A DNA stretch of 64,000 nucleotides from Candidatus Bathyarchaeota archaeon (GTDB lineage: Archaea > Thermoproteota > Bathyarchaeia > Bathyarchaeales > Bathycorpusculaceae): the NCBI GenBank assembly GCA_963833575.1, contig CAWHXY010000006.1, positions 128,001 to 192,000 on the forward strand. The letters are read 5' to 3'. How positions within the stretch are numbered: position 1 is the first letter of the stretch; the number at the start of each line of letters is the position of its first letter. The translations under genes and the position numbers were made by a program. A model generated the notes under the pieces. The model did no database searches, was not told where the DNA came from, and worked only from the letters and a program-made list of their open reading frames with translations. Shown one piece after another: positions 937 to 22,482 of this stretch.

Positions 937-1643
937 TTAAGAGTTTACATCCTGTGGAACAAACCGCCGCAGATTCTTAAGCGACTGCAGTTTCTCTTTC
1001 TCGCCGATTTTTGCTTCCTGCACTGACTGTTTTAGGATTTGAATAGATTCATCCATTGCTTTGCGGTCAACAGGATAAGGAACACCATCTTTGCCTCCAT
1101 ATGCAAAACTAAATTTTACAGGGTCCTCCCAACTTGGCTTTTCGCCGTAAACTAACTCGGCGACAAGAGCTAAACCCCTAACTGTCGCGGGTCCAACACC
1201 TTTGATACTCAAAAGCTCCTCGTAATTGTTTGGTTGGAACTCGTAAACTCGGCTTAGCGTATCCCAATTAATGTTACGCGGCATGTTTAGCGTGTTTAAG
1301 GTTTGTTGCCATGGGTCATCGGTCTTGGGTAGCCAATTTTGAAGTGAATATTGGTTTAGCGGTTTTGTGGTTGATTGGATCAGGTTCATGAGTTTGCGTG
1401 TGGGTTCCTTTGCCAAGTCTACGCTGGCTTTTCTGGCAGCTTCGCTATCTTTTGCTACCATGTTCAGGGCTGTTTCCCGTTTTACGTTTCCAACTATTGC
1501 ATTGTGTGGTTCAACAGCAAAGTCCGCTACATTATCCGACAGCCAATGATACCGTCTTGCCGAACGGTCATTTTCACTCATACCCTGCTGAATCACAGCC
1601 CACTGCTCATCCCTAGTTACTAAGAAAGCGTGGTGATAAAGCT
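937..1643 (-). pseudogene. C-terminal fragment of a DUF763 family gene interrupted by element E1
   Basis: LYHHAF...WAVIQQGM...ARRYHW...GVGPATVRGLALVAELVYG...FSFAYGGKDGVPYPVD are DUF763 motifs. The first 29 aa of track ORF 937..1728 come from E1 sequence. Confidence 0.88.
1638..1643 (+). repeat. E1 attL core (AAAGCT)
   Basis: Identical to 5956-5961 and lies exactly at the DUF763 breakpoint. Confidence 0.85.
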
Positions 1644-1882
1644 CAAAGCATGTCAGTAGTGATATCTCCCGCAATATTTCCCCTTTTTTTGATAAGCACG
1701 AGGCAAATAGGAAACTCCGTTTTGCCATAGCATCTCTCCAGGGAAAGGTAGAGAGCTCGATCTGGAAAAGACGCCTTCAAACGGCTCTAATTATCAGGGA
1801 TGAGCTCCTGGAGCATGGTTACAAGTGGCAAGCCGATAGGATCGATAACTGGATCCATAGGCTCCAGGAAAAGGAGGTTTGA
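1640..1882 (+). CDS. E1 ORF1, 3' part (start codon supplied by the other end of the element after circularisation)
   Basis: Open frame ...DKHEANRKLRFAIASLQGKVESSIWKRRLQTALIIRDELLEHGYKWQADRIDNWIHRLQEKEV*, homologous to E2 ORF 18004..18282. It has no start codon and is bounded by a TAA at 1637-1639 in the integrated state. Confidence 0.8.
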   Translation, partial: SSKHVSSDISRNISPFFDKHEANRKLRFAIASLQGKVESSIWKRRLQTALIIRDELLEHGYKWQADRIDNWIHRLQEKEV

Positions 1883-1885
1883 GCT

Positions 1886-2215
1886 CTGGAGCATAGAATT
1901 AGAGTTTTTTGCCCTGCCTGTATCGATTTGATACCCGATTTTTGGCATGGATCTAGTCAGGATTGGTATAAAGCTCTCGAGGCCGTACATGGCCTTCCTT
2001 TCCCTCAGTGGTTACTTACTGCTTTGGAGCACGAATTTGAGCATGGTTACGACAGATCACACCTGACACAGATCAGCGATTCAGTCAAACACAAACGATA
2101 TCCAGCTAAGTTTCCATGGAGGCTTAAGCTGAAGGATCCAGGGGTTCCCGGGCCTGGAAAAGTCTTGCAGGCCGAAGGCCTGACCTCTGAGAGAAGAGAG
2201 GAGGGCTCTTTCTAG
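1886..2215 (+). CDS. E1 ORF2, hypothetical (track start 1928; possible CTG start at 1886 adds a CPAC motif)
   Basis: AGGAGG at 1872-1877 precedes an in-frame CTG. The C-terminus LQAEGLTSERREEGSF is shared with E2 ORF 18282..18473. Confidence 0.5.
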   Translation: MEHRIRVFCPACIDLIPDFWHGSSQDWYKALEAVHGLPFPQWLLTALEHEFEHGYDRSHLTQISDSVKHKRYPAKFPWRLKLKDPGVPGPGKVLQAEGLTSERREEGSF

Positions 2216-3190
2216 TTGGCAGCCAAATACATGCTGGAGCAAGAAGGCAGCTTCACTTTCATGAGGCCTGACTCGATCGAGTGCAGGATCGTAACCTGCA
2301 AACATTATGATGCCTGCAAAAGCGTTGGCGAAAAGTCGGGTATCCTGCCTAAAGCGAAGTCGATTTTAGAGGTTTTGGGCCTCGATTGGCAACTGCCAGG
2401 TCATGGCAAGGCCTATGATGATTGTGGATCCTGGAGGTACAGGGGTTGCTTAGACGTCTATTCTCACGTGCAGAATGAGCTGGATCAGAGCATCAAGGAA
2501 AAGATCTATGTTGAGTGGTATCATCGCAGCTGTGTGAGGGCCGAGTGTCCGATCTGCTATGAGAAGTGGGCTGGGAAGGAGGCTGCTAAGATCGAGCATC
2601 GTCTAAAGTACTTCTGGAAATATGGCAAGGTTATCCATGTGACCGTTTCACCGTCAGAAAAAGACGCTGTTAACATGCCTTTTGAGAAATTGATCGCAAA
2701 AATGTATCGGATAGCTAAACAGAGAGGTTTGAAAGGTGGTTCTTGTATTTGGCATCCCTGGAGAGAGCACGATAATGGATCATGGTATTTCTCGCCCCAT
2801 TTCCACGTTCTAGGCTTTGGATGGGTGCGAAACACTAAAGAGGGCTTTGAAAAGGATGGTTGGTTAGTGAAAAATATCCAGGATGGCAAGAAGGAAAGAT
2901 CAGTTTTCCGCACGGCCATGTATCAACTAAGCCATTGTGGGATCAGCAAAAATCATAGGCCAGTTACCTGGTTTGGAGTTTGCAGTCCAGCTGCTAAGGA
3001 AAAAGTCAACGTGCCTCCAATGGAGAAAGAGAAACACTTGTGTCCAGCTTGCGGAGCTGAGCTAGTACAACTTAGGTATTTTGGCTTGGAGGATCAGCTG
3101 CCAGATCGAGAGGAGAACGCATGTGCCTGGCTAGATCCTGGAGAGAACTGGGCAGAGTTCCAGCCCTCCAGGTATGGAGATGAAGGGTAA
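2216..3190 (+). CDS. rep: Rolling-circle replication initiator (HUH endonuclease Rep) with Zn-binding motifs
   Basis: Motif I-like VIHVTVSP, HUH motif PHFHVLG, motif III-like YQLSH tyrosine, and Cys motifs CVRAECPIC and CPACG. Confidence 0.82.
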   Translation: MAAKYMLEQEGSFTFMRPDSIECRIVTCKHYDACKSVGEKSGILPKAKSILEVLGLDWQLPGHGKAYDDCGSWRYRGCLDVYSHVQNELDQSIKEKIYVEWYHRSCVRAECPICYEKWAGKEAAKIEHRLKYFWKYGKVIHVTVSPSEKDAVNMPFEKLIAKMYRIAKQRGLKGGSCIWHPWREHDNGSWYFSPHFHVLGFGWVRNTKEGFEKDGWLVKNIQDGKKERSVFRTAMYQLSHCGISKNHRPVTWFGVCSPAAKEKVNVPPMEKEKHLCPACGAELVQLRYFGLEDQLPDREENACAWLDPGENWAEFQPSRYGDEG

Positions 3191-3351
3191 TGTTCAGAGT
3201 TCAGATTCGCCGAGGTAGTGGATCCAGGGCCAGGATCCAGATTAAGATCTGTGGTGATTGTGGTTTTTGGGTTGGCCGTTGCCTTTTAGGTGAGGGAAAC
3301 CGTTTTGCTGGATCTGAGTCATGTGGTAGATCTAAACCTAGGGAGCTGTGA
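3190..3351 (+). CDS. Small Cys-rich protein (53 aa, not in ORF track)
   Basis: ATG overlaps the Rep stop (TAATG). MFRVQIRRGSGSRARIQIKICGDCGFWVGRCLLGEGNRFAGSESCGRSKPREL. Conserved in E2 at 19646..19804. Confidence 0.75.
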   Translation: MFRVQIRRGSGSRARIQIKICGDCGFWVGRCLLGEGNRFAGSESCGRSKPREL

Positions 3352-3355
3352 GATA

Positions 3356-3652
3356 GTGGCCAGGGCACATGATTGTATCTTAACAGTTACTATTAGAAAG
3401 AGGCTGTTGAAAGAGATCAGAGATAAGCGGTTGTTGTCGTTGAATTTTCTTGAGAGATTGAGAACTCAGGAAGCGGATCCTGTGGATCTCAGCTGCTTTA
3501 AGTGTAGCCGAAAGGTTAGAGGTGGCTCATGGATCCATGTGATCAGAAGCTCCTATAGAGTGCGAATCTATCATCTCAAGTGTTTTGAGGGATCCTTTGT
3601 TGATGCTCACAGAAGTAACTGTGATCAAGCTTCTGGGAGGGTTGAAAACTAA
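3356..3652 (+). CDS. Zn-finger protein (CxxC...HxxC)
   Basis: GTG start at 3356 matches E2 MARATDCILT. Contains CFKC and YHLKC. Confidence 0.75.
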   Translation: MARAHDCILTVTIRKRLLKEIRDKRLLSLNFLERLRTQEADPVDLSCFKCSRKVRGGSWIHVIRSSYRVRIYHLKCFEGSFVDAHRSNCDQASGRVEN

Positions 3653-3653
3653 A

Positions 3654-3866
3654 ATGCCAAAAGGTGAAGGTACTGCTGGAGGCATCATGGAGATAATTAA
3701 GACTCCGTTGGGCATCATCATTTTGTTTATCATTATGTTGGTGCTAGCTGGCTTGAGTATTGCCTCAGCTATCTCAGGAGCCTTAACCGCTGCAGCTGTT
3801 AGCTCAGCTGGGTTGTTGGTTGTAGTTGTGCTCCTGGTAGTTGTCAAAGTATTAGGGAAATCTTAA
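3654..3866 (+). CDS. 70-aa hydrophobic helical-hairpin protein, candidate major capsid or pilin-like protein
   Basis: MPKGEGTAGGIMEIIKTPLGIIILFIIMLVLAGLSIASAISGALTAAAVSSAGLLVVVVLLVVVKVLGKS. Two hydrophobic segments and a basic C-terminus. Identical protein in E2 despite 10 synonymous substitutions. The capsid role is an inference. Confidence 0.65.
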   Translation: MPKGEGTAGGIMEIIKTPLGIIILFIIMLVLAGLSIASAISGALTAAAVSSAGLLVVVVLLVVVKVLGKS

Positions 3867-3870
3867 GCAG

Positions 3871-3891
3871 AAAGGCTCAGAATTGAGCTTT
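3871..3891 (+). terminator. Hairpin after the candidate capsid gene
   Basis: AAAGGCTCA-GAA-TTGAGCTTT imperfect inverted repeat followed by a pyrimidine-rich tract. Same sequence at 20316-20336. Confidence 0.45.
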
Positions 3892-4154
3892 ATTTCCTCA
3901 TTCTCCCTCATTTTTCCGTTAATTAACATCTTTTAGGCTCCAGGAGAGGGGTTTTTGACTCTCTTAGGGTAGTCAGTTTTGATCAGAAATTGGCCAAGTT
4001 TCTTCAATCTTTTGCGTACGTGAGAAATTTGGGCCCCTTTATTATTATATTATGTATATTAGGTAATCACAAAAAAAATAAATATTAAAAAATGCTTAGT
4101 AGAATTCAATTTGGGGTTGAATGTTGAAATGGAGCTCAGTTTGGTGGTATCTAA

Positions 4155-4436
4155 GTGAGAGAGTACAGTAATGGCTTCTCTGTTAAGCTAACAGATGAGG
4201 AGCAAGCAAGCTATGAGAGAGTTCTCAGTTATTATAAGGCCGTTGATCCTTCTCGATCAAAAGCTTTCAGGTTGTTGCTGAGGGCGCTGGAGTTGGAGAT
4301 CTCCAGGCAATCTCAGAAGGCCTATTGGAGTAACACCGAGTTTGATCCTCCCAGGGCTGAACCAAGCCATGACGTAACAATCAGTTCTGAGGAGGAGTTC
4401 CTGGAGAGAGAAGCAAAGGACACCTGGACTGAGTAG
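4155..4436 (+). CDS. Ribbon-helix-helix-like DNA-binding regulator
   Basis: N-terminal FSVKLTDEEQ strand-helix followed by SRSKAFRLLL, with an acidic tail. Identical protein in E2. Confidence 0.55.
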   Translation: MREYSNGFSVKLTDEEQASYERVLSYYKAVDPSRSKAFRLLLRALELEISRQSQKAYWSNTEFDPPRAEPSHDVTISSEEEFLEREAKDTWTE

Positions 4437-4439
4437 GGC

Positions 4440-4686
4440 AAAAGTAATATCCATAAAGGCGTTATTATTGATCAAGCAGCTGAGGCCAGCTGCATGGCTC
4501 CAGGAGGATTTAAGATCTTGAAACCGTCTTTTTCTTCCTTTTGGAGCCATCCAATTTTAACTATTTTTGTCAATTGTGAAATAGGTCTAAAATCGGACAT
4601 AGTGGGTAAAAAGTAATATCCGTTTGATGGGCTTTTGTGTCCATTTTGTTTATAAGTAAAAAGTAATATCCGTTTCATGGACTTTT
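4440..4686 (+). promoter_or_regulatory. Direct repeats upstream of the integrase (operator or iteron-like) around a TATA-like box
   Basis: AAAAGTAATATCC at 4440-4452. The longer GTAAAAAGTAATATCCGTTT(G/C)ATGG(G/A)CTTTT occurs at 4606 and 4656 (50-bp period) with TTTATAA between them. Confidence 0.6.
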
Positions 4687-4749
4687 CTAAAAACTGTAGA
4701 TGTTAAAAGCCTTGACTTTGAATAGTCCATCAAGGCTTCAAGATCTAAA

Positions 4750-5925
4750 ATGAGTGCTGATTTAGCTCAAATTTCAAGTTCAAGTAACAAAACCAGCTCA
4801 GCTCCTCAGTGTCCTAAGTGTGGTTTTCGTGTAGTTCTTGATGGCCATCGTTACTCCTGGGGCCAGGATATCCAGCTTTTCAAGTGCAAAAATAAGTCTT
4901 GTCGTTATAGGTTCTCAAACGGACATAGTAGTTCAAAAACTAATCCAAAGATAGTTAGATCTAACCAATTAGGCGTCAGATTAGAGGCGAAAAAATTGGT
5001 TTCTGCAACAGAAATAAAGACTGTTGTGGGAGATAAAAATGACAATCTGATCACGTACGCATGGCATGAGAAGAAACGTGGAATAGCTGATACAACCATC
5101 ACACATAGAGTTTTCCGTTTGACTGTTCTTATGAACAGAGGTGCTAACTTAGATGATCCAGAGAGCTTTCTATCGGTTTTGATGACTGAAAATTTTTCAG
5201 AGTCCTCAAAATTCCAGTATTTGCAAGCTTACCTGAGCTACGCCAAAGCGTTCAAAATTCCTTTTGAGAAGCCAAAAATCCACTATGAACCGAAAGTCCA
5301 GTACACGCCAAAGCCCTATGAGGTAGCAATCTTAATTCAAAATCTTGGTAAACAACAGAGAGCTTTAGTTCAAACGATGGCGACTACAGGTGCGAGAATT
5401 GGAGAAATGGCCAGGTTAGAATGGAGTGAAATAGATTCAGTAGGACAGATAGTGTATATCAACCATCCAGAGAAGGGCAGCAGAGCTAGAAAAATCCATG
5501 TGCCTGAGCAAACCATCAAATTCCTAGAAGGATTGCCAAAAACCTATGATCCTTACGTTTTCAACCCAAATAAGCGAACCTTACAAGCTACCTATGCCAG
5601 ATCCAGAGACTCTATCGCTAAAAGGCTTGATATGCCGATCCTCAAAAAAATCCATCATCACTCTTTCCGTCGATATTTTGCAGATCAGACCTACAAAAAA
5701 ACCCAATTTAACATCCGAAAAACACAGCTGCGAATGGGCCATAAACGATTGAGCTCTACAGAGAAATACTTTGACGATTTTGACGATGAAAACGTCACTT
5801 TTGAAACAGCTAGAGCTTACACAGTAGAGGACGCAGAGGAGCTGAGGCAACTGGGCTATGAGCTATATGATACTGGAATAGACGAGAACGGCAAAGCTGT
5901 GAAGTTGTACAGTAGGATGGCTTAG
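4750..5925 (+). CDS. int: Tyrosine integrase with N-terminal Zn ribbon (E1)
   Basis: CPKC..C..C N-terminus. Catalytic TGARIGE (R), KGS (K), HSFRR (HxxR), MGHK (H), EKYF (Y). Confidence 0.93.
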   Translation: MSADLAQISSSSNKTSSAPQCPKCGFRVVLDGHRYSWGQDIQLFKCKNKSCRYRFSNGHSSSKTNPKIVRSNQLGVRLEAKKLVSATEIKTVVGDKNDNLITYAWHEKKRGIADTTITHRVFRLTVLMNRGANLDDPESFLSVLMTENFSESSKFQYLQAYLSYAKAFKIPFEKPKIHYEPKVQYTPKPYEVAILIQNLGKQQRALVQTMATTGARIGEMARLEWSEIDSVGQIVYINHPEKGSRARKIHVPEQTIKFLEGLPKTYDPYVFNPNKRTLQATYARSRDSIAKRLDMPILKKIHHHSFRRYFADQTYKKTQFNIRKTQLRMGHKRLSSTEKYFDDFDDENVTFETARAYTVEDAEELRQLGYELYDTGIDENGKAVKLYSRMA

Positions 5926-5953
5926 ACATGGTAATAGCGAAAAAAACGTACAT

Positions 5954-6388
5954 TCAAAGCTGGTACCCCGCTTGAATAGCGGCGTTATCAACTTTTGCAG
6001 CCATTTTACTATTGTAAGTTAATTCGTTGATCTTTTCTTCAGAAAAACCGAATTTTGTGCCAGCCACTGCTAAGTCGTTTGGCGTTTTCTTTGAGGTTTT
6101 TCCTTTTCCGCCGCAGACCGCTATGCCGTGCTCTTTTGGTGATAGAGCGCTTTTGAGGATGCCTGTGACGACTGTTGTTACTCCTGAGCTGTGCCAATCG
6201 TAAGCTAAAACGCAGCCGAATGCTTGAAACCAATACGGGTCCGATAAACGTTGCATGAATTTGGATGTGCCCTGCTCTTCAATCATGATGTTTGCTATTT
6301 CTTTGGCTAATTTGCGCATTCGCACAGTTAGCCATGAAGGAGCTTTTCCGCCATGAAGAGGCAGGTTTGCAACGCCCGTTCTATACAT
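5954..6388 (-). pseudogene. N-terminal fragment of the DUF763 family gene interrupted by E1
   Basis: MYRTGVANLPLHGGKAPSWL...LSDPYWFQAFGCVLAYDWHSSGVTT...AKVDNAAIQAGYQL, then a TGA formed at the E1 junction. Confidence 0.9.
5956..5961 (+). repeat. E1 attR core (AAAGCT)
   Basis: Identical to 1638-1643 and lies at the end of the DUF763 N-terminal fragment. Confidence 0.85.
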
Positions 6389-6689
6389 TACTTTCACTAT
6401 CAGTATTCGCTCAAAGAATAATGAGGCATCCTGTTTTGAATGTTATTGAAACATTTACGGCAGTTTTCAACTATACAGAATGGAAAATGCAGGCTCACAG
6501 ATTTGAATAATTATCTGTAGGACGTAGATACGACTGCTTTAGCATCTAATTGTTAAATTCCACAGTTCTCTTGTTTGTACAATGCCTCATTTGTTTAAAC
6601 CCAATTGGTTATGTGTACAACTGTAGTTTCAGGTATCATTTAGAAAGGTTATGTCGATGTTTTGCCTATTAGTGTTTGAGCGATGAATA

Positions 6690-6872
6690 TTGACAGTTAA
6701 TATGTACCATAGCAAGGTATTGTGCGGCCATGAAGCGGTCGACGCATTAGACAAATATATCCGAAAACTTGAAAAACGCAAAGTTAAAGGTTTAACCGAA
6801 AAACAAGCTTATGCCCTAATCAAAACAGCAAAAGTACTGCGAACTGAAATTATCCGATCCAAAGACAACTAA
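6690..6872 (+). CDS. Small basic hypothetical protein
   Basis: ORF track only; plausible composition. Confidence 0.4.
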   Translation: MTVNMYHSKVLCGHEAVDALDKYIRKLEKRKVKGLTEKQAYALIKTAKVLRTEIIRSKDN

Positions 6873-7075
6873 AAAACAAGAAACTCAACCTACAACTACT
6901 GGAATACATCTCTTGGCTAATCCTGTTTCGAATTCTATTCAACATAGACTTCTGCGTCCATAAACACTTACGTTTAGAAATTGACTCGGTTAGGATAACT
7001 TCAGTTCTCACAATTCGAAATTTTGTTACCCACATATACAGAAAAACAACTTTGAAGGTCTTGCAACGTATTCGG

Positions 7076-7513
7076 CTATTTATCGATTAGAGGATCTTGG
7101 AATGTTAAGCTCGTGTTTTTCCAAGTTATTTTTTGCAGTTTTAATAGTTCTTTGTCATGAGTATAAATAATCGGTGTTTGGTTTGCTAAAAAAGTTGCAA
7201 CTATTAAGGAATCTCTTCCACCAAGCTTGTGCTGCACACATAAAGTGAGGGCTATGGTGCTTGTTTTTCTCGTCTGATTAAAGAATTCTATGTACGGATG
7301 TTTAAGAAGCATTTTCAATTCTTTAGCGGCTTCTTCTGGAACCCATTTCTGGCTAAAAACCAATACGTGATATGTTTCGTGAAGCGTGGTCGGATTTAAA
7401 GCAACCTTATTTTCAGGAGATAGACTGAGGAACAAATCCCCGAGTTTTTCGTTTTCAGGGTACTCTTCATCCAGAGCGTAACATATAATGTTAGCGTCTA
7501 AACCCACAATCAT
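7076..7513 (-). CDS. vapC: PIN-domain toxin (VapC-like)
   Basis: GLDANII, E residue, RDSLIVA and THDKEL acidic PIN motifs. Overlaps the antitoxin gene by 4 nt. Confidence 0.85.
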   Translation of the reverse strand: MIVGLDANIICYALDEEYPENEKLGDLFLSLSPENKVALNPTTLHETYHVLVFSQKWVPEEAAKELKMLLKHPYIEFFNQTRKTSTIALTLCVQHKLGGRDSLIVATFLANQTPIIYTHDKELLKLQKITWKNTSLTFQDPLIDK

Positions 7514-7767: not shown

Positions 7768-7910
7768 TACTGTTAAGTGGGACAGACAGACTATTAAAAC
7801 TTGCTAAAAAGGTTGGCTTTTTCAGGTTATTAATGGCATTTCTTAACGTTCTATTCCCTGATTTACCGAACTTTGCTTGAGCAAGATTACCGGGACTAAT
7901 GGTTAGCTAG

Positions 7911-8885
7911 TTAATGAAGTTCTATGATTCCGGCAACTCGGAGCTTTGCACCCTCAAGATACATGAGCACTGCTGTATCATTTGGACGGTAAACTAGTGG
8001 CTTTTCAAAACTTAAAGTTAAAGCTGGCTTTTTCGGATCGCCACCTTCAACAATGGCTTCGATTTTAACAGTTATGAATTGCGTCCAATGGCCAACATGC
8101 ATGACCATACCCGGTTTTATCGGCATCTGCCAATACTTAACTATAGAAGCATGCGTTTCCATTTTGGAAGCAGTCTTGATTGAAGAATCGTTTGTTAAAA
8201 CGGTGCCGCGGTCCAAATCTTCTACATCAACGTTTTTAAGCGCAAGTCCAACTCGATCACCTTCACCTGCAACGTCAAATTCGTCGTCATGCTTTTGGAT
8301 AGACCGAACTTGAGCCGCTTTTCCTCCTGGAAAAACATTCAGTGAAGCATGTTTCTGGATTAACCCATTTGTAACTACGCCCAAGACAACTACCCCAACA
8401 CCTTTAACATTGAAGGCGTGGTCGACTGGAACCGTTCCAAACGCTGCGACCGCTCCCACAGGTATTTCGGCTGGTTTCTGATTTGCGGCTTCTGTCAACA
8501 GTCTTTCTCTCAAAACCGTTGGGTCATCTGACAGGAATTCGTATTTTTCTAGGTTTGTTCCTTTTATGAGAGGTCCAATTTTTTCTTTGGGAATATAATT
8601 TCGCAAAATAAAGTAGCCTTTCTGAATGTTTGCGGATTGAAGCATTACTAAGCATTCACCAAAAGTGGCATCGATTTGGTCCACGACAACCACGGCTTCT
8701 TTCGATAGGGAGACTGTGTAAAAGAGAGGAGCTAACCTTTCAGGGTAGCGTTCGGGTTCAATCAAAGTGACTGTGTCTTCGCCTTTCTTGATATTGTAAA
8801 ATGTGATGTCGGTGGATGTACCTTTCTTGCCAAGACCTGCGCTATACCCTAATACGCCGATTACGGCGACTGTAATATTCCCCAT
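7911..8885 (-). CDS. Archaeal SelB-like / EF-Tu domain II protein
   Basis: LGKKGTSTDIT, VDHAFNVKGVGVVVLG, VRSIQKHD, GDRVGLALK, DLDRG. Confidence 0.8.
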   Translation of the reverse strand: MGNITVAVIGVLGYSAGLGKKGTSTDITFYNIKKGEDTVTLIEPERYPERLAPLFYTVSLSKEAVVVVDQIDATFGECLVMLQSANIQKGYFILRNYIPKEKIGPLIKGTNLEKYEFLSDDPTVLRERLLTEAANQKPAEIPVGAVAAFGTVPVDHAFNVKGVGVVVLGVVTNGLIQKHASLNVFPGGKAAQVRSIQKHDDEFDVAGEGDRVGLALKNVDVEDLDRGTVLTNDSSIKTASKMETHASIVKYWQMPIKPGMVMHVGHWTQFITVKIEAIVEGGDPKKPALTLSFEKPLVYRPNDTAVLMYLEGAKLRVAGIIELH

Positions 8886-9134
8886 ATTATCAACCTGTGA
8901 ATTACCGCATTTTCTAATCTCGCCCTAAAGATAAGCATTATGAAAAAGTCAATCAGTTTCCTGATGCAAACATTGCTGTGCTCAATGGCATGTACGAAAG
9001 GTTCTTAAGGTATTGGGTATTTCTCCTAACGGAAATAGAGTTAAAATTTACAGCAAAACACAAACTTAACCTCAAAAGATGAGTTTGTGTGTAGCTGAAA
9101 AGGTTAAAATAGTCCGATGAAGAGGTGAAATGGT

Positions 9135-9458
9135 ATGGAAAATATTTACGCAGCGATGCTCCTTCACAAGGCAGGAAAAGAAATAAACGAAGAATCAGTA
9201 ACAAAAGTTCTCAGCGCAGCAGGACTCACAGTTGACCCAGTACAAGTAAAAGCACTTGTAGCATCACTCAGCGAAGTAAACATTGATGAAGCAATCAAAG
9301 CAGCACCAACAATGATGGCAGCAGCCCCAGTAGCAGCTCCAGCAGGCGGCGCAGCAGCACCAGCAGCAGCACCACCAGAAGACAAGAAGAAGAAAGCTGA
9401 AGAAGAAAAAGCCAAGGAAGAAGCAGCACTAGAAGGATTAGGCGCCCTATTCGGGTAA
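9135..9458 (+). CDS. rpl12: 50S ribosomal stalk protein P1/L12
   Basis: [17 protein letters not shown], Ala/Pro hinge, GLGALFG C-terminus. Confidence 0.96.
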
Positions 9459-9836: not shown

Positions 9837-10403
9837 ATGAAGCAGGCTAAACTGTTTGGGTTAGAAGATGAACCTAAAGTTTCGATTTCGCTTGAATACA
9901 AAAAGGCAGAAGCAATCGCCAAGCAAGTGGAGGCATTAATTAAGCCCTTATGTGACAATGTTAAAATTGTAGGAAGCATCAGACGAAGAAAGCCAGAAGT
10001 TGGCGACTGTGACTTTGTTGTAATAGCGACAGATACTAATTGGGCTAAAATTATTCAAACTCTAAAAAAATCAAAAGTAATTTGTTCGGGACCAAGCCTG
10101 ATAAAACTTAACTATCCAGCTGAAGACTGTCTTTTTCAAGTTGATTTTTACCGGGCAACAACGCAAACTTTTGGCATACAAGAGCTAATACGCACTGGAT
10201 CAGCTGACCATAACATGTGGCTTGCAGGCTACGCCATATCAAAAGGATATAGACTAAAATATAGTTCTGGATTAATCAAAGACAACATGGTAATGGCCGG
10301 AGAAACTGAGGAAAGCGTTTTTTCAGCCCTAAATTTACCCTGCCCTTCACCATCAATGCGAGAAGTGCTAGATCAAAAACCTATTTGGTTAACAAATCAC
10401 TAA
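9837..10403 (+). CDS. Minimal PolX-family (DNA polymerase beta-like) nucleotidyltransferase
   Basis: GSIRRRKPEVGDCDFVV, QVDFY, RTGSADHN, ETEESVFSAL. Palm and thumb only. Confidence 0.8.
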   Translation: MKQAKLFGLEDEPKVSISLEYKKAEAIAKQVEALIKPLCDNVKIVGSIRRRKPEVGDCDFVVIATDTNWAKIIQTLKKSKVICSGPSLIKLNYPAEDCLFQVDFYRATTQTFGIQELIRTGSADHNMWLAGYAISKGYRLKYSSGLIKDNMVMAGETEESVFSALNLPCPSPSMREVLDQKPIWLTNH

Positions 10404-10863: not shown

Positions 10864-10975
10864 GAAAGCAAATTATTTTTAACATCCTTTTTTCCTTTTT
10901 TTCATAGAAAATTGCTAATAGACGAGTTAATTTTAACGAAAAGCATGATCTTAGCGCTTTAGAAGAAATGAAAAT

Positions 10976-12261: not shown

Positions 12262-12996
12262 TTAGAATATGGTTTCTGTCATTATCCTCTTTAGTATTGT
12301 GGCACCGTCTTTCATTTTGAGTTTTTTTTCACCGAGTCTCTCTCTATACTGGATCGGCACCTCAACTGTTTTGAAGCCTTTCTTTTGTATCAAGCTGTTT
12401 AGTTCCACTTCGATGTCGAAGCCTTCAGACTTTATTGTATAGTTCCTGAGAATTTCTGCTCGGATAACTCTCAAACCTGTAAGAGGGTCAACTAGTGTTA
12501 TCCCGTTAAGAACATTATGGGCAAAAGCTAGAACTTTGTTTCCCAAGTAGAAACGGCTACGCAATGCTTTGTTGTCTAGCTGATCGTTGAATCGGTTTCC
12601 ACAAACCATTCCTACGTCTGGATTCTGATCAAGAATTTTTATCATTTCGGGCACATGTCGAGCTGGATAAGTGAAGTCCGCATCGGTGATTACAACATAG
12701 TCAATATCGCTGTCTGTTAGATTTAGCCCCTTCGCAATAGCATCCCCTTTGCCTACACCATCTTGAAAAGTAATATCCACTCCATAATTCTTTGCTACTT
12801 CCACAGTTCTATCGCTGCTGTGACCGTCTACAACCAGAATATGAGGCGAATCAAGATTATCCTTAAGCTCCTCTAATGTAAGTCCAATGCCTTGCTCCTC
12901 GTTTAAAGCTGCGACAATCACTTGAGTAGAACAAGCGCGGGCAAGAGGTGTTTCATAAATATTTTTCATAATCTGCAAAGTGTAAGTCCCTTTCAT
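12262..12996 (-). CDS. GT2 glycosyltransferase (DPM-synthase-like)
   Basis: VVDGHSSDRT, GKGDA, DADFTYP, FDIEVE, RLGEKKL. Confidence 0.9.
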   Translation of the reverse strand: MKGTYTLQIMKNIYETPLARACSTQVIVAALNEEQGIGLTLEELKDNLDSPHILVVDGHSSDRTVEVAKNYGVDITFQDGVGKGDAIAKGLNLTDSDIDYVVITDADFTYPARHVPEMIKILDQNPDVGMVCGNRFNDQLDNKALRSRFYLGNKVLAFAHNVLNGITLVDPLTGLRVIRAEILRNYTIKSEGFDIEVELNSLIQKKGFKTVEVPIQYRERLGEKKLKMKDGATILKRIMTETIF

Positions 12997-13505: not shown

Positions 13506-13757
13506 GTGAGCGAAGCGATTGACAGAAAAGGGTGGCGTGAGAGCGCTAAATCTTGGATATTACGTTTCATAAAATTCAACGTAATTGGCACCGTTGTTTT
13601 CTTGGTGGCAACAGTAATTTACATGGCTGCTTTTCCAGCAATTGGTGCCTGGACATGGCTGTTAGCTAATGCTGCTGGGGGCTTACTGCAGTTTACGTTG
13701 ATTACTTATTTCAACAAGAAGAAAAAAGGCGTGATTTTCCAGCAATGCAAGCAATAG
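13506..13757 (+). CDS. GtrA-like small membrane protein
   Basis: RFIKFNVIG motif and two TM helices. Confidence 0.6.
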   Translation: MSEAIDRKGWRESAKSWILRFIKFNVIGTVVFLVATVIYMAAFPAIGAWTWLLANAAGGLLQFTLITYFNKKKKGVIFQQCKQ

Positions 13758-13783
13758 ATGTTAATGATAATAGACTTTGATAA

Positions 13784-14653: not shown

Positions 14654-14728
14654 AGTACTTCTGCCTCTGTGCTTGGTTGTCTGCGGTGTGCTTAAAAGGC
14701 TGAGAGGAGATATAAAACTGCGTGTTAT

Positions 14729-15844: not shown

Positions 15845-15969
15845 CTAAGCTACCAATTTTGCCAAGACGTTAGCATTACTTTTTTCTCTTAATTGAGGAA
15901 AGTCCCAGTTCTCTTTATGCACGAGTTCCTCAACAGGCGTCTTTTGTCAATGTTAATTCAAGTTTTAAT

Positions 15970-16641: not shown

Positions 16642-16714
16642 TCAAGGAAAGGTCAGTTTTTCTATCTAAAAAGCTTTTGCGAAAAGGCAAATTAAAAAAG
16701 AAAAAATCAAAAAG

Positions 16715-17776: not shown

Positions 17777-17891
17777 CTTGCTTGGCTTCTCTATTTGCGA
17801 ATCCCCTTTAAAAAGCTACGGTGTTCACACTCTTGAATAAAACACTCAGCGAAACCCTTTCTGATTTTCAACACTTCTTTTTGCAACTTCA

Positions 17892-17907
17892 TAAGAAACG
17901 CTTATTA
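17892..17907 (+). repeat. E2 attL (TAAGAAACGCTTATTA)
   Basis: Identical to 22466-22481, with an internal dyad TAAG-aaacg-CTTA. Confidence 0.9.
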
Positions 17908-18003
17908 TCCAAATTTGGGTGACATCTCCCGCGCCAAACCCTCCCTTTCTTTTTCATTAATGTTCTGCTGTAGTCTTTTTGCTTACCTAAATTTTTCGGA
18001 GGT

Positions 18004-18282
18004 TTGTCCTTGAGCGGTAGCTGTGAACCTCTTTTTTCTGATTTTTACAACAAGGATTGGGCCAATCGAAAACTCCGTTTTGCGATCGCAACTCTTCAGG
18101 GAAAAATTGAGATCTCTATCTGGAAAAGACGCCTTCAAACGGCTCTAATTGCCAAGGATGAGCTCCTGGATCATGGTTACAAGTGGCAAGCCCAGAGGAT
18201 CGATAACTGGATCCATAGGCTCCAGGGCCAGGAAATTGCTAAGGATGAGGCCAGGATTCAGGGCCAGGAGGCCAGGAAATAA
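18004..18282 (+). CDS. E2 ORF1, hypothetical
   Basis: Homologous to the E1 frame at 1640-1882 (ANRKLRFAIA.LQGK...WIHRLQ). Confidence 0.75.
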   Translation: MSLSGSCEPLFSDFYNKDWANRKLRFAIATLQGKIEISIWKRRLQTALIAKDELLDHGYKWQAQRIDNWIHRLQGQEIAKDEARIQGQEARK

Positions 18283-18473
18283 TGAAGGATCCAATCTTTG
18301 GATCTGGCCAGTTAGATATCTGGCCCTGCAGGAGAGGATCTTGGCACCAGGAAAACAATTATTGGTTGATTGAGGCCTGGCCAGCAGCTGCTCAGGATCC
18401 AATAGTTTCCAGGCCCGGGAATTTACAGGCCGAAGGCCTGACCTCTGAGAGAAGAGAGGAGGGCTCTTTCTAA
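18282..18473 (+). CDS. E2 ORF2, hypothetical
   Basis: TAATG coupling to ORF1. Ends in the same LQAEGLTSERREEGSF as E1 ORF2. Confidence 0.55.
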   Translation: MKDPIFGSGQLDIWPCRRGSWHQENNYWLIEAWPAAAQDPIVSRPGNLQAEGLTSERREEGSF

Positions 18474-19424
18474 TTGGCAGCAAAATTTAGGCTGGAGCAA
18501 GAAGGCAGCTTCACTTTCATGAGGCCTGACTCGATCGAGTGTAGGATCGTTACCTGCAAGCATTATGAGGCCTGTAAAAGCGTTGGCGAAAAGTCGGGTA
18601 TCCTGCCTAAAGCGAAGTACGGTTTTGAGGAAATTGATTGGCAGTTACCAGGCCACGGCGAGAAGTATGATGATTGTGGGGATTGGCGGTATCGTGGCTG
18701 TCTTAACGTAGAAGCTCACGGCCAGAATGAGCTCGGTCAGGATGTTGAGGGAAAGATCTGGGTTGAGTGGTATCATCGGAATTGTGGCCGTGCAGAATGT
18801 CCTACTGATTATGAAAGATGGGCTGGGCTTGAAGCATCAAAAATCACGCATCGGTTGAAGTATTTTTGGAAGAGGGGAAAGGTGCTTCATATAACCATTT
18901 CTCCGAGTGAAAAGGACGCTTTAACATTGAGCTTTACCAAATTGAAGGCTAAAATGTACCGTGTTGCAAGGCTGAGGGGGATCAAGGGAGGCTGTGTAAT
19001 TTGGCATCCCTTCAGGGAAAATGATGATGGAACCTGGAGAGTATCTGGCCACTTCCATATCTTAGGGTTTGGGTGGGTTCGAAATGTCAGCCAGGGGTAC
19101 AAAAGTGATGGTTGGTTAGTGAAAAACATCCAGGACGGTCAGAAGGAAAGATCTGTTTTCAGGACGGCCATGTATCAGCTTAGCCACTGTGGTATAAGTA
19201 AAGGAACTCGTCCTGTGGCTTGGTTTGGAGTTTGCAGCTCAAAAATCAAAGTTCCAGAGATTGAGGAAGTTAAGCATCTATGTCCATGTTGCGGAGCTGA
19301 GCTAGTACAGCTTCGTTATTATGGAGATCCTGACGGTCTCCCAGATAAGACTGAAGAGAACGGTTCCTGGTTGGATTCTGGAGATTGGATCGAGAAAGAA
19401 ACAGTGAAATGGAGGAGAGATTAG
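18474..19424 (+). CDS. rep: Rolling-circle replication initiator (HUH endonuclease Rep)
   Basis: VLHITISP, GHFHILG (HUH), YQLSH, CGRAECP, CPCCG. Homolog of 2216..3190. Confidence 0.82.
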   Translation: MAAKFRLEQEGSFTFMRPDSIECRIVTCKHYEACKSVGEKSGILPKAKYGFEEIDWQLPGHGEKYDDCGDWRYRGCLNVEAHGQNELGQDVEGKIWVEWYHRNCGRAECPTDYERWAGLEASKITHRLKYFWKRGKVLHITISPSEKDALTLSFTKLKAKMYRVARLRGIKGGCVIWHPFRENDDGTWRVSGHFHILGFGWVRNVSQGYKSDGWLVKNIQDGQKERSVFRTAMYQLSHCGISKGTRPVAWFGVCSSKIKVPEIEEVKHLCPCCGAELVQLRYYGDPDGLPDKTEENGSWLDSGDWIEKETVKWRRD

Positions 19425-19425
19425 G

Positions 19426-19638
19426 ATGTCTAAACTAGGGAGAAAGATTTGTTGCATCTATAGAAAGGATGCTCGCTGTGTTAGACCATTCCAGGATTTT
19501 CAACGGTGTTTCTTCATTGGAAATCATGTTAGAGCTGGAGAACAATGTGATTTTGACGTTGGAGTATGTTTGTTGGTACCTGAAGCAATTAAAGCTCAAT
19601 ATCTCGCTATTTTAGAAAAAAATGGTTTTCATAGGTGA
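19426..19638 (+). CDS. E2-specific Cys-rich small protein
   Basis: Packed 1 nt after Rep, six Cys residues, absent from E1. Confidence 0.55.
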   Translation: MSKLGRKICCIYRKDARCVRPFQDFQRCFFIGNHVRAGEQCDFDVGVCLLVPEAIKAQYLAILEKNGFHR

Positions 19639-19645
19639 TGATTAG

Positions 19646-19804
19646 ATGTTCGTTAGCATTGAGATTTTAGAGAGTTTCAGGGCCAGGATCCAGGTTAAGA
19701 TCTGTGGTGAATGTCGGTTCTGGGTTGGCCGTTGCCTTTTAGGTGAGGGGAACCGTTTTGCCGGATCTGAGGCTTGTAATAGATCTAGGAGTCGAGATGT
19801 GTAA
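19646..19804 (+). CDS. Small Cys-rich protein (52 aa, not in ORF track)
   Basis: MFVSIEILESFRARIQVKICGECRFWVGRCLLGEGNRFAGSEACNRSRSRDV. Homolog of 3190..3351. Its stop overlaps the next ATG. Confidence 0.75.
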   Translation: MFVSIEILESFRARIQVKICGECRFWVGRCLLGEGNRFAGSEACNRSRSRDV

Positions 19805-20097
19805 TGGCTAGGGCTACAGATTGTATCTTAACAGGTACTAATCAAAAGAGGCTGTTGCGAGAGATTAGACAAAAGCGGTTGCTACCTCTGAATTTTGTTG
19901 AGAGGGTCAGGGATAAGGTTGTGGATCTAGATATCAGCTGTGAGATGTGTGGCCGAAGGATTAGAAAGGGCTCCAGGATCCATGTGATAAGGAGCTCAAT
20001 TAAAGTCAGGATTTATCATCTGTGTTGTTTTGAGGGCTCTTTTATTCATGCTCACAGAAGTAACTGTGATCAAGCTTCTGGGAGGGTTGAAAACTAA
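19804..20097 (+). CDS. Zn-finger protein (CxxC...HxxC)
   Basis: CEMC and YHLCC. Homolog of 3356..3652. Confidence 0.75.
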   Translation: MARATDCILTGTNQKRLLREIRQKRLLPLNFVERVRDKVVDLDISCEMCGRRIRKGSRIHVIRSSIKVRIYHLCCFEGSFIHAHRSNCDQASGRVEN

Positions 20098-20098
20098 A

Positions 20099-20311
20099 AT
20101 GCCAAAAGGTGAAGGTACTGCTGGAGGCATCATGGAGATAATTAAGACTCCGCTGGGCATCATCATTTTGTTTATCATTATGTTGGTGCTAGCTGGACTC
20201 TCGATTGCCTCAGCTATCTCAGGAGCCTTAACCGCTGCAGCTGTCAGTTCAGCTGGGCTGTTGGTTGTAGTTGTGCTCCTGGTAGTTGTCAAAGTATTAG
20301 GGAAATCTTAA
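20099..20311 (+). CDS. 70-aa hydrophobic helical-hairpin protein, candidate major capsid or pilin-like protein
   Basis: Protein identical to 3654..3866. Confidence 0.65.
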   Translation: MPKGEGTAGGIMEIIKTPLGIIILFIIMLVLAGLSIASAISGALTAAAVSSAGLLVVVVLLVVVKVLGKS

Positions 20312-20599
20312 GCAGAAAGGCTCAGAATTGAGCTTTATTTCCTCATTCTCCCTCATTTTTCCGTTAATTAACATCTTTTGAGCTCCAGGAGAGGGGTTTT
20401 TGACTCTCTTAGGGTGGTCAGTTTTGATCGGAAAATGGCCAAGTTTCTTCAATCTTTTGCGTACGTGAGAAATTTGGGCCCCTTTATTATTATATTATGT
20501 ATATTAGGTAATCACAAAAAAAATAAATATTAAAAAATGCTTAGTAGAATTCAATTTGGGGTTGAATGTTGAAATGGAGCTCAGTTTGGTGGTATCTAA

Positions 20600-20881
20600 G
20601 TGAGAGAGTACAGTAATGGCTTCTCTGTTAAGCTAACAGATGAGGAGCAAGCAAGCTATGAGAGAGTTCTCAGTTATTATAAGGCCGTTGATCCTTCTCG
20701 ATCAAAAGCTTTCAGGTTGTTGCTGAGGGCGCTGGAGTTGGAGATCTCCAGGCAATCTCAGAAGGCCTATTGGAGTAACACCGAGTTTGATCCTCCCAGG
20801 GCTGAACCAAGCCATGACGTAACAATCAGTTCTGAGGAGGAGTTCCTGGAGAGAGAAGCAAAGGACACCTGGACTGAGTAG
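20600..20881 (+). CDS. Ribbon-helix-helix-like regulator
   Basis: Protein identical to 4155..4436. Confidence 0.55.
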   Translation: MREYSNGFSVKLTDEEQASYERVLSYYKAVDPSRSKAFRLLLRALELEISRQSQKAYWSNTEFDPPRAEPSHDVTISSEEEFLEREAKDTWTE

Positions 20882-20884
20882 GGC

Positions 20885-21131
20885 AAAAGTAATATCCATA
20901 AAGGCGTTATTATTGATCAAGCAGCTGAGGCTAGCTGCATGGCTCCAGGAGGATTTAAGATCTTGAAACCGTCTTTTTCTTCCTTTTGGAGCCATCCAAT
21001 TTTAACTATTTTTGTCAATTGTGAAATAGGTCTAAAATCGGACATAGTGGGTAAAAAGTAATATCCGTTTGATGGGCTTTTGTGTCCATTTTGTTTATAA
21101 GTAAAAAGTAATATCCGTTTCATGGACTTTT
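20885..21131 (+). promoter_or_regulatory. AAAAGTAATATCC direct repeats upstream of the integrase
   Basis: Same three repeats as 4440-4686. Confidence 0.6.
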
Positions 21132-21195
21132 CTAAAAACTGTAGATGTTAAGAGCCTTGACGTTGAATAAGTCCTTCAAGGTTTCAAGATTTAAA

Positions 21196-22482
21196 ATGAG
21201 TGCTGATTTAGCTCAAATTTCAAGTTCAAGTAACAAAACCAGCTCAGCTCCTCAGTGTCCTGAGTGTAGTTCTCATGAAGTAGTTCTTGATGGCCATCGT
21301 TACTCCTGGGGCCAGGATATTCAGCTTTTCAGATGTAAATCATGTAAGCATAGGTTCTCAAACGGACATAACAGTTCAAAAACTAATCAAAATACTATTA
21401 GATCTAACCAATTAGGCGCTAAATTAGAGGCGAAAAAATTGGTCGTGCTGCCACATAGAAAACATGTCGGCACGGGAGAAGTCACTGCAGAACATGAAGC
21501 ATTGCTTAGAGTTTTTGAAGGTTGGCTACGGAAAGAAGGCTACAACAAAAACTGTTATCCAAACAACGTAAAGACATTGCTATACCTTGGGGCCAATCTT
21601 TTAGATCCAGAGGATGTCAAAGCAAAAATCGCTGATCACAACGTCAAAAACGGAATGAAAATGCAACTTTGCTACAGTTATGAAGCGTTTCTACGGATGA
21701 ACAAAATGACTTGGACGCGACCAAAAAATGGAAAAGGCTACAAACAAGACGAGATTGATCCGTGGATTCCACTTGAGGTAGAGCTGGATCAACTGATTGC
21801 AGCTGCACATAGCAAGCGGATGGCAGTTTTTCTACGGACTCTTAAGGAAACTTTCACTGATCCAAGTGAGGCACTACAGATTGAGAGCCATGACATTGCA
21901 GACAATTCAGTAACGATCAGACATCCTGTTAAGAAACATCGTCCACGAACGCTAGAAGTTTCACCTCAGCTGATTGCAGATCTAAATAGCCTCTCACATG
22001 ATTCAGATCGGATTTTTGATTGCAGATACAGCACTATGATCAGCGGTTTTATTGCGTTGCGTAGGCGTGTCGCTCAAAGAACCCAAAACGACAGAATAAA
22101 CTACATCGAGTTACGGAGCTACAGACATTGGGCTGGAACAATGATTGCAGAAATGTCAAACGGTAATCCAATGTCAGTAATGAAGCTGCTAGGCTTAAGA
22201 CGCATTGAAAATGCTATGAAATACGTTAACATCTGGAAATTGAGCTTCAAAACTGAGACTGAATGGCAATACATGGAAGTTACAACACCTGAAGAACTAA
22301 AGATTGCCTTGCTTGGCGGCTACCAACATGTCATCGACAAGTTTGGAGCTTCATGGTTTAGAAGACCTAAAAGAATTGCCATTGCTATTACACCGATTAG
22401 CCAGCGACCAGATGAACCACAATGTCCCCAGATAGAAACCCCGATTAATAAACGCGAACCTGCATTAAGAAACGCTTATTAA
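21196..22482 (+). CDS. int: Tyrosine-recombinase-family integrase (E2) with non-canonical catalytic residues
   Basis: Shares the MSADLAQ...LEAKKLV N-terminus with the E1 integrase. Core reads KETFTDPSEAL, LRSYRHW, LLGLRRIENAMKY. Its 3' end overlaps attR. Confidence 0.82.
   Translation: MSADLAQISSSSNKTSSAPQCPECSSHEVVLDGHRYSWGQDIQLFRCKSCKHRFSNGHNSSKTNQNTIRSNQLGAKLEAKKLVVLPHRKHVGTGEVTAEHEALLRVFEGWLRKEGYNKNCYPNNVKTLLYLGANLLDPEDVKAKIADHNVKNGMKMQLCYSYEAFLRMNKMTWTRPKNGKGYKQDEIDPWIPLEVELDQLIAAAHSKRMAVFLRTLKETFTDPSEALQIESHDIADNSVTIRHPVKKHRPRTLEVSPQLIADLNSLSHDSDRIFDCRYSTMISGFIALRRRVAQRTQNDRINYIELRSYRHWAGTMIAEMSNGNPMSVMKLLGLRRIENAMKYVNIWKLSFKTETEWQYMEVTTPEELKIALLGGYQHVIDKFGASWFRRPKRIAIAITPISQRPDEPQCPQIETPINKREPALRNAY

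Follow-up and report, generated by a model that had tools for sequence, protein, structure and literature searches.

The small Sulfolobus replicons pSSVx and pSSVi spread in the particles of a larger fusellovirus helper, and pSSVi integrates by means of its own integrase. To our knowledge, neither of them encodes a major coat protein. Here, we describe two integrated elements, E1 and E2, in a 64,000-nucleotide stretch of a Candidatus Bathyarchaeota genome (GenBank assembly GCA_963833575.1, contig CAWHXY010000006.1, positions 128,001 to 192,000), which is called the window below and to which unprefixed coordinates refer. Each element carries a replication protein (Rep), an integrase, and a 70-amino-acid (70-aa) hydrophobic two-helix protein, here called hyd, that is shared with a larger, undescribed virus-like element. 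Their Rep differs from the replication proteins of pSSVx and pSSVi, and whereas spread in helper particles is known for those replicons, E1 and E2 are known here from their genes alone.

A described relative of the replication gene occurs in SNJ1, a double-stranded DNA (dsDNA) virus whose RepA is an HUH initiator reported to drive rolling-circle replication (PMC12642351, excerpt). The thaumarchaeal cryptic integrated element NitAQ6f-E2 likewise encodes a rolling-circle replication endonuclease homologous to that of SNJ1 (Krupovic et al. 2019; PMC6563490, excerpt). Compared by description only, this element, which was traced through an integrase survey, resembles E1 and E2 in being integrated and in having an endonuclease of the SNJ1 type, but the excerpt mentions no hyd-like membrane protein. 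SNJ2, a member of the Pleolipoviridae, regains an intact replication operon only once it has been excised and circularised (PMC13107129, excerpt). The attP arrangement of E1 and E2, judged from sequence alone, suggests the same switch logic, although the Rep of SNJ2, of the Rep-Arvir family and related to Rep_trans, is unlike theirs (PMC13107129, excerpt). The Pleolipoviridae core consists of a membrane protein, a spike, and an NTPase; E1 and E2 have no spike-sized or NTPase gene, and hyd was not compared directly with pleolipovirus VP3.

Huangdivirus is a spindle-shaped Bathyarchaeia provirus with small coat proteins of two hydrophobic helices, an AAA+ ATPase, and a glycosyltransferase (PMC10541130, excerpt). 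It shares with E1 and E2 the link to Bathyarchaeia, but the two elements are far smaller and would replicate through Rep. Among described systems, and by description only, Huangdivirus comes closest to the large hyd-bearing element treated below, on account of its ATPase, glycosyltransferase, and two-helix proteins. The Charybdis elements (bioRxiv 10.1101/2025.08.03.668216, excerpt) and Rep-Arvir (PMC13107129, excerpt) were also considered and are different things from E1 and E2. No published description of such elements was found in the literature on Bathyarchaeia viruses and plasmids, spindle-shaped viruses, and archaeal rolling-circle satellites; the supplements of PMC6563490 and PMC10541130 may list relatives.

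Results

E1 interrupts a minus-strand host gene of the DUF763 family, and E2 lies upstream of a tRNA-Ala gene (Table 1). In all five same-genus loci examined, the base matching window position 5962 directly abuts the base matching 1643. These empty sites prove the boundaries of E1, for which the 6-nt repeat alone would be weak evidence. The DUF763 gene was present in 28 of the 41 same-genus genomes searched (this genome, G000, included), at 29 places, and its frame is open for 357–432 aa at 26 of them; the three short ones belong to G000, G421, and G409. The short frame of G421 is due to a 4633-bp insertion (L083:1606-6238, same genus) at exactly the same DUF763 point as E1. This element has an integrase 70% identical to that of E1, a 412-aa Rep that is 28% identical, an orf92-like gene, and a zinc-ribbon protein, and hyd is absent from it. 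Since the E1 and G421 elements occupy one point, the E1-type integrase targets that point repeatedly.

At the E2 site, the relative G283 has just one 16-nt core, with the tRNA-Ala flank after it. The flanks are found at the expected distance of about 89 nt in G403, where the core itself is not present, and the site differs in the other three of the five relatives. Thus, both elements show what marks the work of tyrosine recombinase integrases, an insertion with direct repeats at a defined site and empty sites elsewhere. The sequence-only reading, made from the letters of the window before the present analysis, had described E1 and E2 as integrated elements with a tyrosine integrase, and the repeats, the empty sites, and the integrases support their nature as site-specific mobile elements; they are almost certainly integrated site-specific Rep elements. 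Its statement that each is bounded by exact direct repeats stands for the 16-nt repeat of E2, whereas E1 has only the 6-nt AAAGCT and its limits were fixed by the empty sites instead. No att joints were found in the Logan contigs of the sole DNA study containing the region, where the depth is low and the result therefore uninformative on mobility; the sole joint in these contigs is E1/E2 cross-homology. No RNA dataset is listed with the E1/E2 region, and a simple k-mer scan of this genome showed no CRISPR arrays.

The two elements are collinear. A repeat search paired them segment by segment in 12 repeat pairs at a spacing of about 16.24–16.45 kb, and every gene of both lies on the plus strand, in the order orf92-like gene, ORF2, Rep, Cys-rich protein of 52 or 53 aa, CxxC...HxxC protein of about 97 aa, hyd, AT-rich spacer, 93-aa gene, iterons with hairpin, and integrase; E2 has an extra 70-aa open reading frame (ORF) after Rep that is absent from E1. 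The repeat pairs, the alignment, and the ORF lists thus confirm the gene order and the common strand noted earlier. A frequent joining of genes by TAATG overlaps had also been proposed: one such overlap was read, between Rep and Cys53 at 3188–3192, and by their coordinates Cys52 and Cys97 of E2 share base 19804. The 93-aa protein had been taken for a ribbon–helix–helix (RHH) regulator, for which neither Pfam nor NCBIfam gave a match, so that no family model supports the assignment. The sequence-only reading had seen no packaging ATPase or spike gene, and in the ORF lists and in Pfam and PHROGs searches of E1 and E2 no packaging ATPase or spike-like gene is present; no receptor-binding, fusion, or egress function was found either.

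Similarity between the two copies is uneven. In a MAFFT profile, 3617–4815 and 20062–21261, which cover hyd, the AT-rich spacer, the 93-aa gene, the repeats, and the integrase N-terminus, are 99–100% identical, while the Rep region has 62–78% identity and the catalytic half of the integrase less than 45%. A block of 1.2 kb this alike, running from hyd into the beginning of int, is a sign that the two resident elements recently recombined or underwent gene conversion.

Rep has 340 homologues in the protein collection, many on contigs of 1–5 kb, and among the 120 matches listed there is no Pfam domain and no informative name. Rep is also unnamed by Pfam, PHROGs, and NCBIfam, and it has no match in IMG/VR, in phage records, or in PDB sequences. 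All 43 aligned sequences have H195-F196-H197 and Y236; five cysteines are likewise invariant (Cys106, Cys111, Cys276, and Cys279 among them), and Cys114 is nearly so. The AlphaFold2 (AF2) model (pLDDT 87.2) places the HFH motif on a central strand (190–202) and Y236 on a helix (230–238). The top rows of the structure search are HUH domains (2x3g, Z 4.5; 9pqq, 4.4; 8amu, 4.4; 3wrn, 4.1; 7lcc, 4.0), with RRM domains tied at about 4, and the HUH proteins among the fold matches are SIRV1 ORF119, vientovirus Rep, RepB of pMV158, MVM NS1, and Helitron; Foldseek E-values were at least 0.09. These fold scores are low; the profile comparison is decisive for the placement. By hhalign, Rep matches SNJ1 RepA with a probability of 97.6% (E 4.4e-12, 172 aligned columns), the large ORFs of pZMX101 (98.4%) and pSCM201 (98.5%), and a Halobacterium litoreum plasmid protein (98.1%). 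From these profiles, Rep is a member of the already described SNJ1 RepA/pZMX101/pSCM201 family, although SNJ1 is not reached from Rep by BLAST alone.

With that family, Rep shares a CPxC-type Cys cluster, the motifs hIHvvxSP, HPaR, and PHaH (HUH), and a single Tyr motif, in the same order. It is shorter, at 316–324 aa against 399–481 aa in SNJ1, pZMX101, and pSCM201, and unlike them it has a C-terminal CxxC zinc ribbon and comes from non-halophilic archaea, on integrating elements of 4–5 kb. The invariant motifs and hhalign support an HUH-type Rep with zinc-binding cysteines, as the sequence-only reading had it. Its suggestion of a possible new family fails, since Rep belongs to a known one and SNJ1-type integrated elements are already published for Thaumarchaeota (PMC6563490, excerpt). 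Nor does this type of Rep imply a single-stranded DNA virus, as the dsDNA virus SNJ1 uses the same type (PMC12642351, excerpt). The family is widespread in archaea, with 22 loci in species-representative genomes, labelled Bathyarchaeota/Bathyarchaeia (6), Nitrosopumilaceae or other Thaumarchaeota (8), Methanoperedens (2), Thermoplasmata (2), Methanolliviera (1), Woesearchaeota (1), and bacteria (2). The closest relatives of Rep sit in metagenome-assembled genomes (MAGs) labelled Bathyarchaeota/Bathyarchaeia, in agreement with the proposed host.

What is new here is hyd; the backbone belongs to a known class of small integrating Rep elements. Hyd has 99 homologues, mostly of 66–71 aa, with 57–93% identity to the aligned core and neither domain nor name. 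Pfam, PHROGs, and NCBIfam gave nothing, and the best score in the ESM Atlas, 0.81, is not informative. The AF2 model is a helical hairpin (helices 18–40 and 43–68, pLDDT 77.8), and hyd has the size and shape of SSV1 VP1/VP3-type proteins (about 70–80 aa, two hydrophobic helices, short turn), a feature that is not specific. This genome holds two copies only, in E1 and E2. No copy was found in 400 other sampled genomes of the class, which include 39 of the genus and possibly do not include the Huangdivirus host, or in 400 other sampled genomes of the phylum. Since it is found in no other sampled genome, hyd is not a host gene. A 'Zixibacteria' MAG contig gives the sole organism label in the hyd cluster and was taken as a binning label only.

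Where else does hyd occur? The 44 metagenome loci with hyd were fetched, their ORFs were clustered, and the loci were sorted by the clusters that they carry. Genes of a large element are found in 35 loci and E1/E2-type genes in 3 (L025, L046, and L047); L052 has another Rep, and 5 are unclear. The gene order of the large element is conserved across loci. Its first arm has a weak integrase-like gene, an RHH protein (PF01402), an AAA+ ATPase that matches phrog_5484, 'DnaA-like replication initiation protein' (E 4.7e-10), and three unknown genes. The divergent arm has hyd, a membrane protein of 255–352 aa, a protein of 800–1261 aa (hereafter the ~1000-aa protein) with an N-terminal signal-like segment and 3–5 C-terminal membrane segments, a protein of 337–442 aa with signal and anchor segments, two more two-helix proteins of about 65 aa, and GtrA-like and GT2 glycosyltransferase genes. 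Thus, hyd heads a module of membrane and secreted proteins in 35 of the 44 loci, and this arm resembles the structural genes of an archaeal virus with a membrane.

No other gene of the large element is as conserved as hyd, whose median identity is 71% against 30–56% for the others; the secreted ~1000-aa protein, at a median of 37%, is among the most variable. The copies of E1 and E2 are 82–87% identical to those of the large element in protein and 72–75% in DNA. Judged by these identities, hyd is unusually conserved and under purifying selection. The virus and phage collections searched do not contain the large element, for which E1 and E2 are the only host link found here; the ATPase and a 250-aa protein of that element have no tblastn match in phage records, the ATPase profile has no match in PDB, and no tRNA genes were found in 12 of its loci. 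One metagenome contig of 48.8 kb contains two diverged copies of the large element about 23 kb apart (L033 and L063), an arrangement that suggests units of about 23 kb integrated in tandem. In L048, hyd itself is tandemly duplicated (8001–8207 and 8945–9151). A stretch upstream of E2 Rep, 18291–18388, is 73–83% identical over 53–98 nt to three places in L048 (2633–2730, 7616–7668, and 8560–8612), two of which precede the tandem hyd copies by a few hundred bases and are on the other strand; this may be a shared regulatory DNA element.

Relatives of the backbone without hyd were found in the Bathyarchaeota MAG loci L003 and L013, which have orf92-like or Cys53-like genes, Rep, and an E1-type integrase (39–42% identity), with other membrane or unknown genes in the middle. 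The middle of the backbone thus holds an exchangeable cargo slot. L025, on a separate metagenome contig, is a third E2-like element with Cys52, hyd, the spacer, the hairpin and iterons, and an E2-type integrase that is 65% identical, and L047 carries Rep and hyd. Circular relatives, which the sequence-only reading had named beforehand as a test, were recognised by terminal overlaps. L009, a contig of 2317 nt with a 141-nt overlap, is a circle of 2176 bp with Rep, an orf92-like gene, and an 87-aa protein. L046, of 2733 nt with a 127-nt overlap, is a circle of 2606 bp that encodes hyd, a Cys-rich protein, a 103-aa protein, and Rep, the ORF of which is complete only when the contig ends are joined; the E1 CxxC...HxxC protein weakly matches a 67-aa gene upstream of hyd in this locus. 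L052, a circle of 1930 bp, pairs hyd with a Rep that belongs to Pfam PF23343 (REP_ORF2-G2P; E 1.7e-10, 41.5 bits, cutoff 27.8). Hyd therefore occurs with two unrelated Rep families, in L046 and L052. The hyd proteins of L047 and L052 are roughly alike, and also like some copies of the large element, by an ungapped identity that misaligns sequences of unequal length.

Both elements carry an integrase of the tyrosine recombinase type, as the earlier reading stated. The E1 integrase scores 61.7 bits against Phage_integrase (PF00589; cutoff 27.1) and has ARIGE, HSFRR, GHK, and KY at the catalytic columns of the alignment. The E2 integrase has no Pfam match, only those to phrog_216 and NF040815 (Table 1), and shows TDPSE, RSYRH, GLR, and KY at the same columns, where its alignment may be off. 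The two have the N-terminal zinc ribbon in common but differ in their catalytic halves, in keeping with an insertion within DUF763 in one case (E1) and upstream of tRNA-Ala in the other (E2). The hairpin upstream of int has a z-score of −4.48, and none of 200 shuffles was as stable. The 13-nt iteron has eight matches in the window against 0.22 expected, three of them in each element, and the hairpin/iteron region is conserved in L025. This region, between the 93-aa gene and int, is a candidate origin and/or operator. The two iteron copies outside E1 and E2, one of which has a mismatch, are at 12766–12778 (plus strand) and 13555–13567 (minus strand), in or near host genes for a GT2 glycosyltransferase and an RNA methyltransferase.

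Across the circular junction of E1, the orf92-like frame runs back to its ATG, three bases past the int stop, and encodes 90 aa. Across that of E2, the int frame has 480 aa and ends where orf92 begins. Read as a circle, int, the orf92-like gene, ORF2, and Rep form one string that integration cuts at att. Because integration parts the E1 orf92-like frame from its ATG and shortens the E2 integrase from 480 to 445 aa, it probably acts as a switch on the replication genes.

Table 1. Features of E1, E2, and the adjoining host genes in the window (L and G numbers denote loci and genomes)
Feature	Position	Strand	Remarks
Host DUF763 gene, C-terminal part, split by E1	937..1728	-	Pfam PF05559 E 5.8e-66, profile positions 134-319
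E1 left AAAGCT, 6-nt direct repeat (att core)	1638..1643	+
E1, 4318-bp insertion	1644..5961	+	flanks contiguous in 5/5 same-genus loci
E1 orf92-like frame	1679..1906	+	open, 73% identical to E2 orf92, no start codon when integrated; ATG at 5928-5930 across att junction
E1 ORF2, 95 aa, no family	1928..2215	+	C-terminus common to E2 orf63
E1 Rep, 324 aa, SNJ1 RepA-like HUH endonuclease with Cys clusters	2216..3190	+
E1 Cys-rich 53-aa protein (Cys53)	3190..3351	+	homologues in loci L013 and L025
E1 Cys-rich protein CxxC...HxxC	3290..3652	+	true start probably near 3359, cf. E2 97-aa form
E1 hyd, 70-aa two-helix hydrophobic protein	3654..3866	+
E1 AT-rich spacer	3867..4154	+	E1/E2 95-100% identical; conserved in locus L025
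E1 93-aa protein, putative RHH regulator	4155..4436	+	identical in E1 and E2
E1 iteron/hairpin region	4440..4671	+	three copies of 13-nt iteron AAAAGTAATATCC around hairpin 4494-4551
E1 tyrosine integrase, 391 aa, N-terminal zinc ribbon	4750..5925	+	Pfam PF00589 E 9.5e-17; phrog_1 E 8e-27
Host DUF763 gene, N-terminal part	5954..6397	-	Pfam PF05559 E 1.5e-60, profile positions 1-139
E1 right AAAGCT copy	5956..5961	+
E2 left 16-nt direct repeat TAAGAAACGCTTATTA	17892..17907	+
E2, 4574-bp insertion	17908..22481	+	empty site with single core in G283
E2 orf92	18004..18282	+	homologue upstream of Rep in L003, L014, L016, L047, G421
E2 orf63	18282..18473	+
E2 Rep, 316 aa	18474..19424	+
E2-specific 70-aa ORF	19426..19638	+	none in E1
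E2 Cys-rich 52-aa protein (Cys52)	19646..19804	+
E2 Cys-rich 97-aa protein (Cys97)	19804..20097	+
E2 hyd, 70 aa	20099..20311	+
E2 93-aa protein	20600..20881	+	identical to E1 copy
E2 iterons, three copies, around hairpin	20885..21116	+
E2 integrase, 445 aa	21145..22482	+	divergent catalytic half; stop codon within att core; phrog_216 E 2.2e-7; NF040815 E 0.004
E2 right 16-nt direct repeat TAAGAAACGCTTATTA	22466..22481	+
tRNA-Ala(GGC)	22518..22595	+	37 nt downstream of E2 att core

Some neighbouring genes were noted in passing. The host stretch between E1 and E2 contains a PIN-domain protein (7076–7513, minus strand) and a short ORF like DNA polymerase beta (PolX palm/thumb; 9837–10403, plus strand), and E2 and the tRNA-Ala gene are closely followed by a gene for a 645-aa AAA_23 protein (22940–24877). 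The Rep elements of L003 and L013 lie directly beside the start of an SMC/Rad50-like gene of about 640–680 aa (L003:4735-6654 and L013:4626-6665).

Discussion

We suggest that E1 and E2 are small integrative replicons with hyd as cargo from a larger virus-like element, and that they are hitchhikers on a larger virus, an overall reading to which we give an even chance. They are the integrated copies of two related replicons, each of which would replicate as a circle from a HUH endonuclease of the SNJ1 RepA type, with its origin at the hairpin and iteron region, and would be inserted by its own integrase of the tyrosine recombinase type. Integration would cut the string of int, orf92, ORF2, and Rep, and the circle would restore it. 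The middle cargo is the two-helix membrane protein common to the larger element, so that E1 and E2 would bring their own copy of a particle protein, while the spike and assembly functions would come from the larger virus. The sharing of genes with such a virus consists in hyd, which the large element also has, and the viral nature of the large element is itself presumptive. That hyd is a membrane or coat component of a virion or vesicle falls a little short of an even chance in our estimate; because hyd sits both in the larger virus-like element and in tiny Rep circles, a particle role, and with it the satellite reading, has independent circumstantial support. The step from there to helper-dependent satellites we take only tentatively.

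Several results weigh against this reading. Hyd has no match in IMG/VR and no tblastn match in 50,697 phage and archaeal-virus records. The sequence-only reading had likened it to fusellovirus VP1, and no homology emerged: in hhalign, neither the SSV1 VP1 precursor nor VP3 paired with the hyd profile (46 sequences) among the best 25, where probabilities were below 1%, in a coat comparison that covered SSV1 only and left out the proteins of His1, thaspivirus, and Huangdivirus. The fold searches fared no better: Foldseek (BFVD and PDB) and a wide VIA search gave generic helical hairpins only, with no viral coat among the matches listed. No capsid hallmark was recognised in the large element, and of its 14 families compared by hhalign with 16 SSV1 proteins, only the AAA protein against B251 (61%) and fam3 against B277 (10.5%) gave matches. 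A helper in the same host was not found: the ~1000-aa protein, as a single query, matched nothing in this genome (94% complete), where hyd is confined to E1 and E2. Hyd is in none of the 22 Rep loci of species-representative genomes; since these loci, L003, L013, and G421 have the backbone without it, hyd is not essential to the replicon. Finally, where tyrosine recombinases usually have their first catalytic Arg and their two His, the E2 integrase has other residues in its alignment.

Could E1 and E2 be plain integrative plasmids, that is, 'cryptic integrated elements', with hyd as a non-structural cargo? Hyd might block superinfection by the large element, as a decoy copy of its most conserved membrane protein, or keep the plasmid stable by acting as a small membrane toxin. 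The unrelated cargo that related backbones hold in the hyd slot, the missing helper, and the lack of homology between hyd and any coat protein would all agree with this, and tiny circles with Rep and one small hydrophobic protein would also suit an addiction module. However, the strong conservation of hyd, with protein identity exceeding DNA identity between the elements, its place at the head of a module of membrane and secreted proteins, and its tandem duplication form a pattern seen more typically in structural genes than in toxins, and we consider plain plasmids somewhat unlikely.

The hitchhiking replicons that we favour would replicate by the rolling-circle mode, which is likely rather than certain because of a report on pSCM201, whose Rep is of the same family. 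Going by its title, a 2006 paper by Sun et al. is said to describe unidirectional theta replication of this plasmid. If Rep acted in this way, the HUH and Tyr motifs would serve another step; this concerns the mode only and is compatible with any lifestyle. The match of Rep to the pSCM201 protein is as good as any obtained, but the invariance of both motifs in all aligned sequences and the rolling-circle mode reported for the homologous SNJ1 RepA (PMC12642351, excerpt) make theta replication improbable.

E1 and E2 would need no larger virus if Rep, hyd, and the Cys-rich proteins sufficed for an infectious, membrane-coated particle, as in an autonomous minimal virus. The circles of 1.9 and 2.6 kb, which retain only Rep, hyd, and one to three small genes, and the pairing of hyd with two different Rep families would be expected of such a virus. 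However, E1 and E2 encode nothing for receptor binding, fusion, or egress, hyd never stands in the large elements without big secreted and membrane proteins, and the contigs are absent from IMG/VR, so that we regard this possibility as very improbable. That the insertions are an assembly artefact or a chance repeat is a negligible prospect: the low depth of the run with the region keeps the junctions from being checked independently, but the copies differ, as do their host contexts, the relatives have clean empty sites, and another genome has a different element at the same DUF763 site.

What do these elements mean for the archaea that carry them? The backbone is ordinary, and E1 and E2 add Bathyarchaeia-type hosts and the DUF763 and tRNA-Ala targets to the known small integrating Rep elements; the attP arrangement would be a simple, testable switch between integration and replication. 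In a bolder version, which we hold to be rather doubtful, hyd would be the main particle protein of undescribed, membrane-coated (spindle-shaped or pleomorphic) archaeal viruses of about 23 kb, captured more than once by rolling-circle replicons of 1.9–4.6 kb with two unrelated Rep families. If so, these replicons would be the smallest capsid-gene-carrying archaeal viruses or satellites known, and E1 and E2 would be the only genome link found here from that virus group to a cellular host. If hyd is a particle protein, there would be archaeal replicons reduced to Rep and a coat gene, in parallel to the Rep-plus-capsid viruses of bacteria and eukaryotes, and these would illustrate how a plasmid can become a virus or a satellite.

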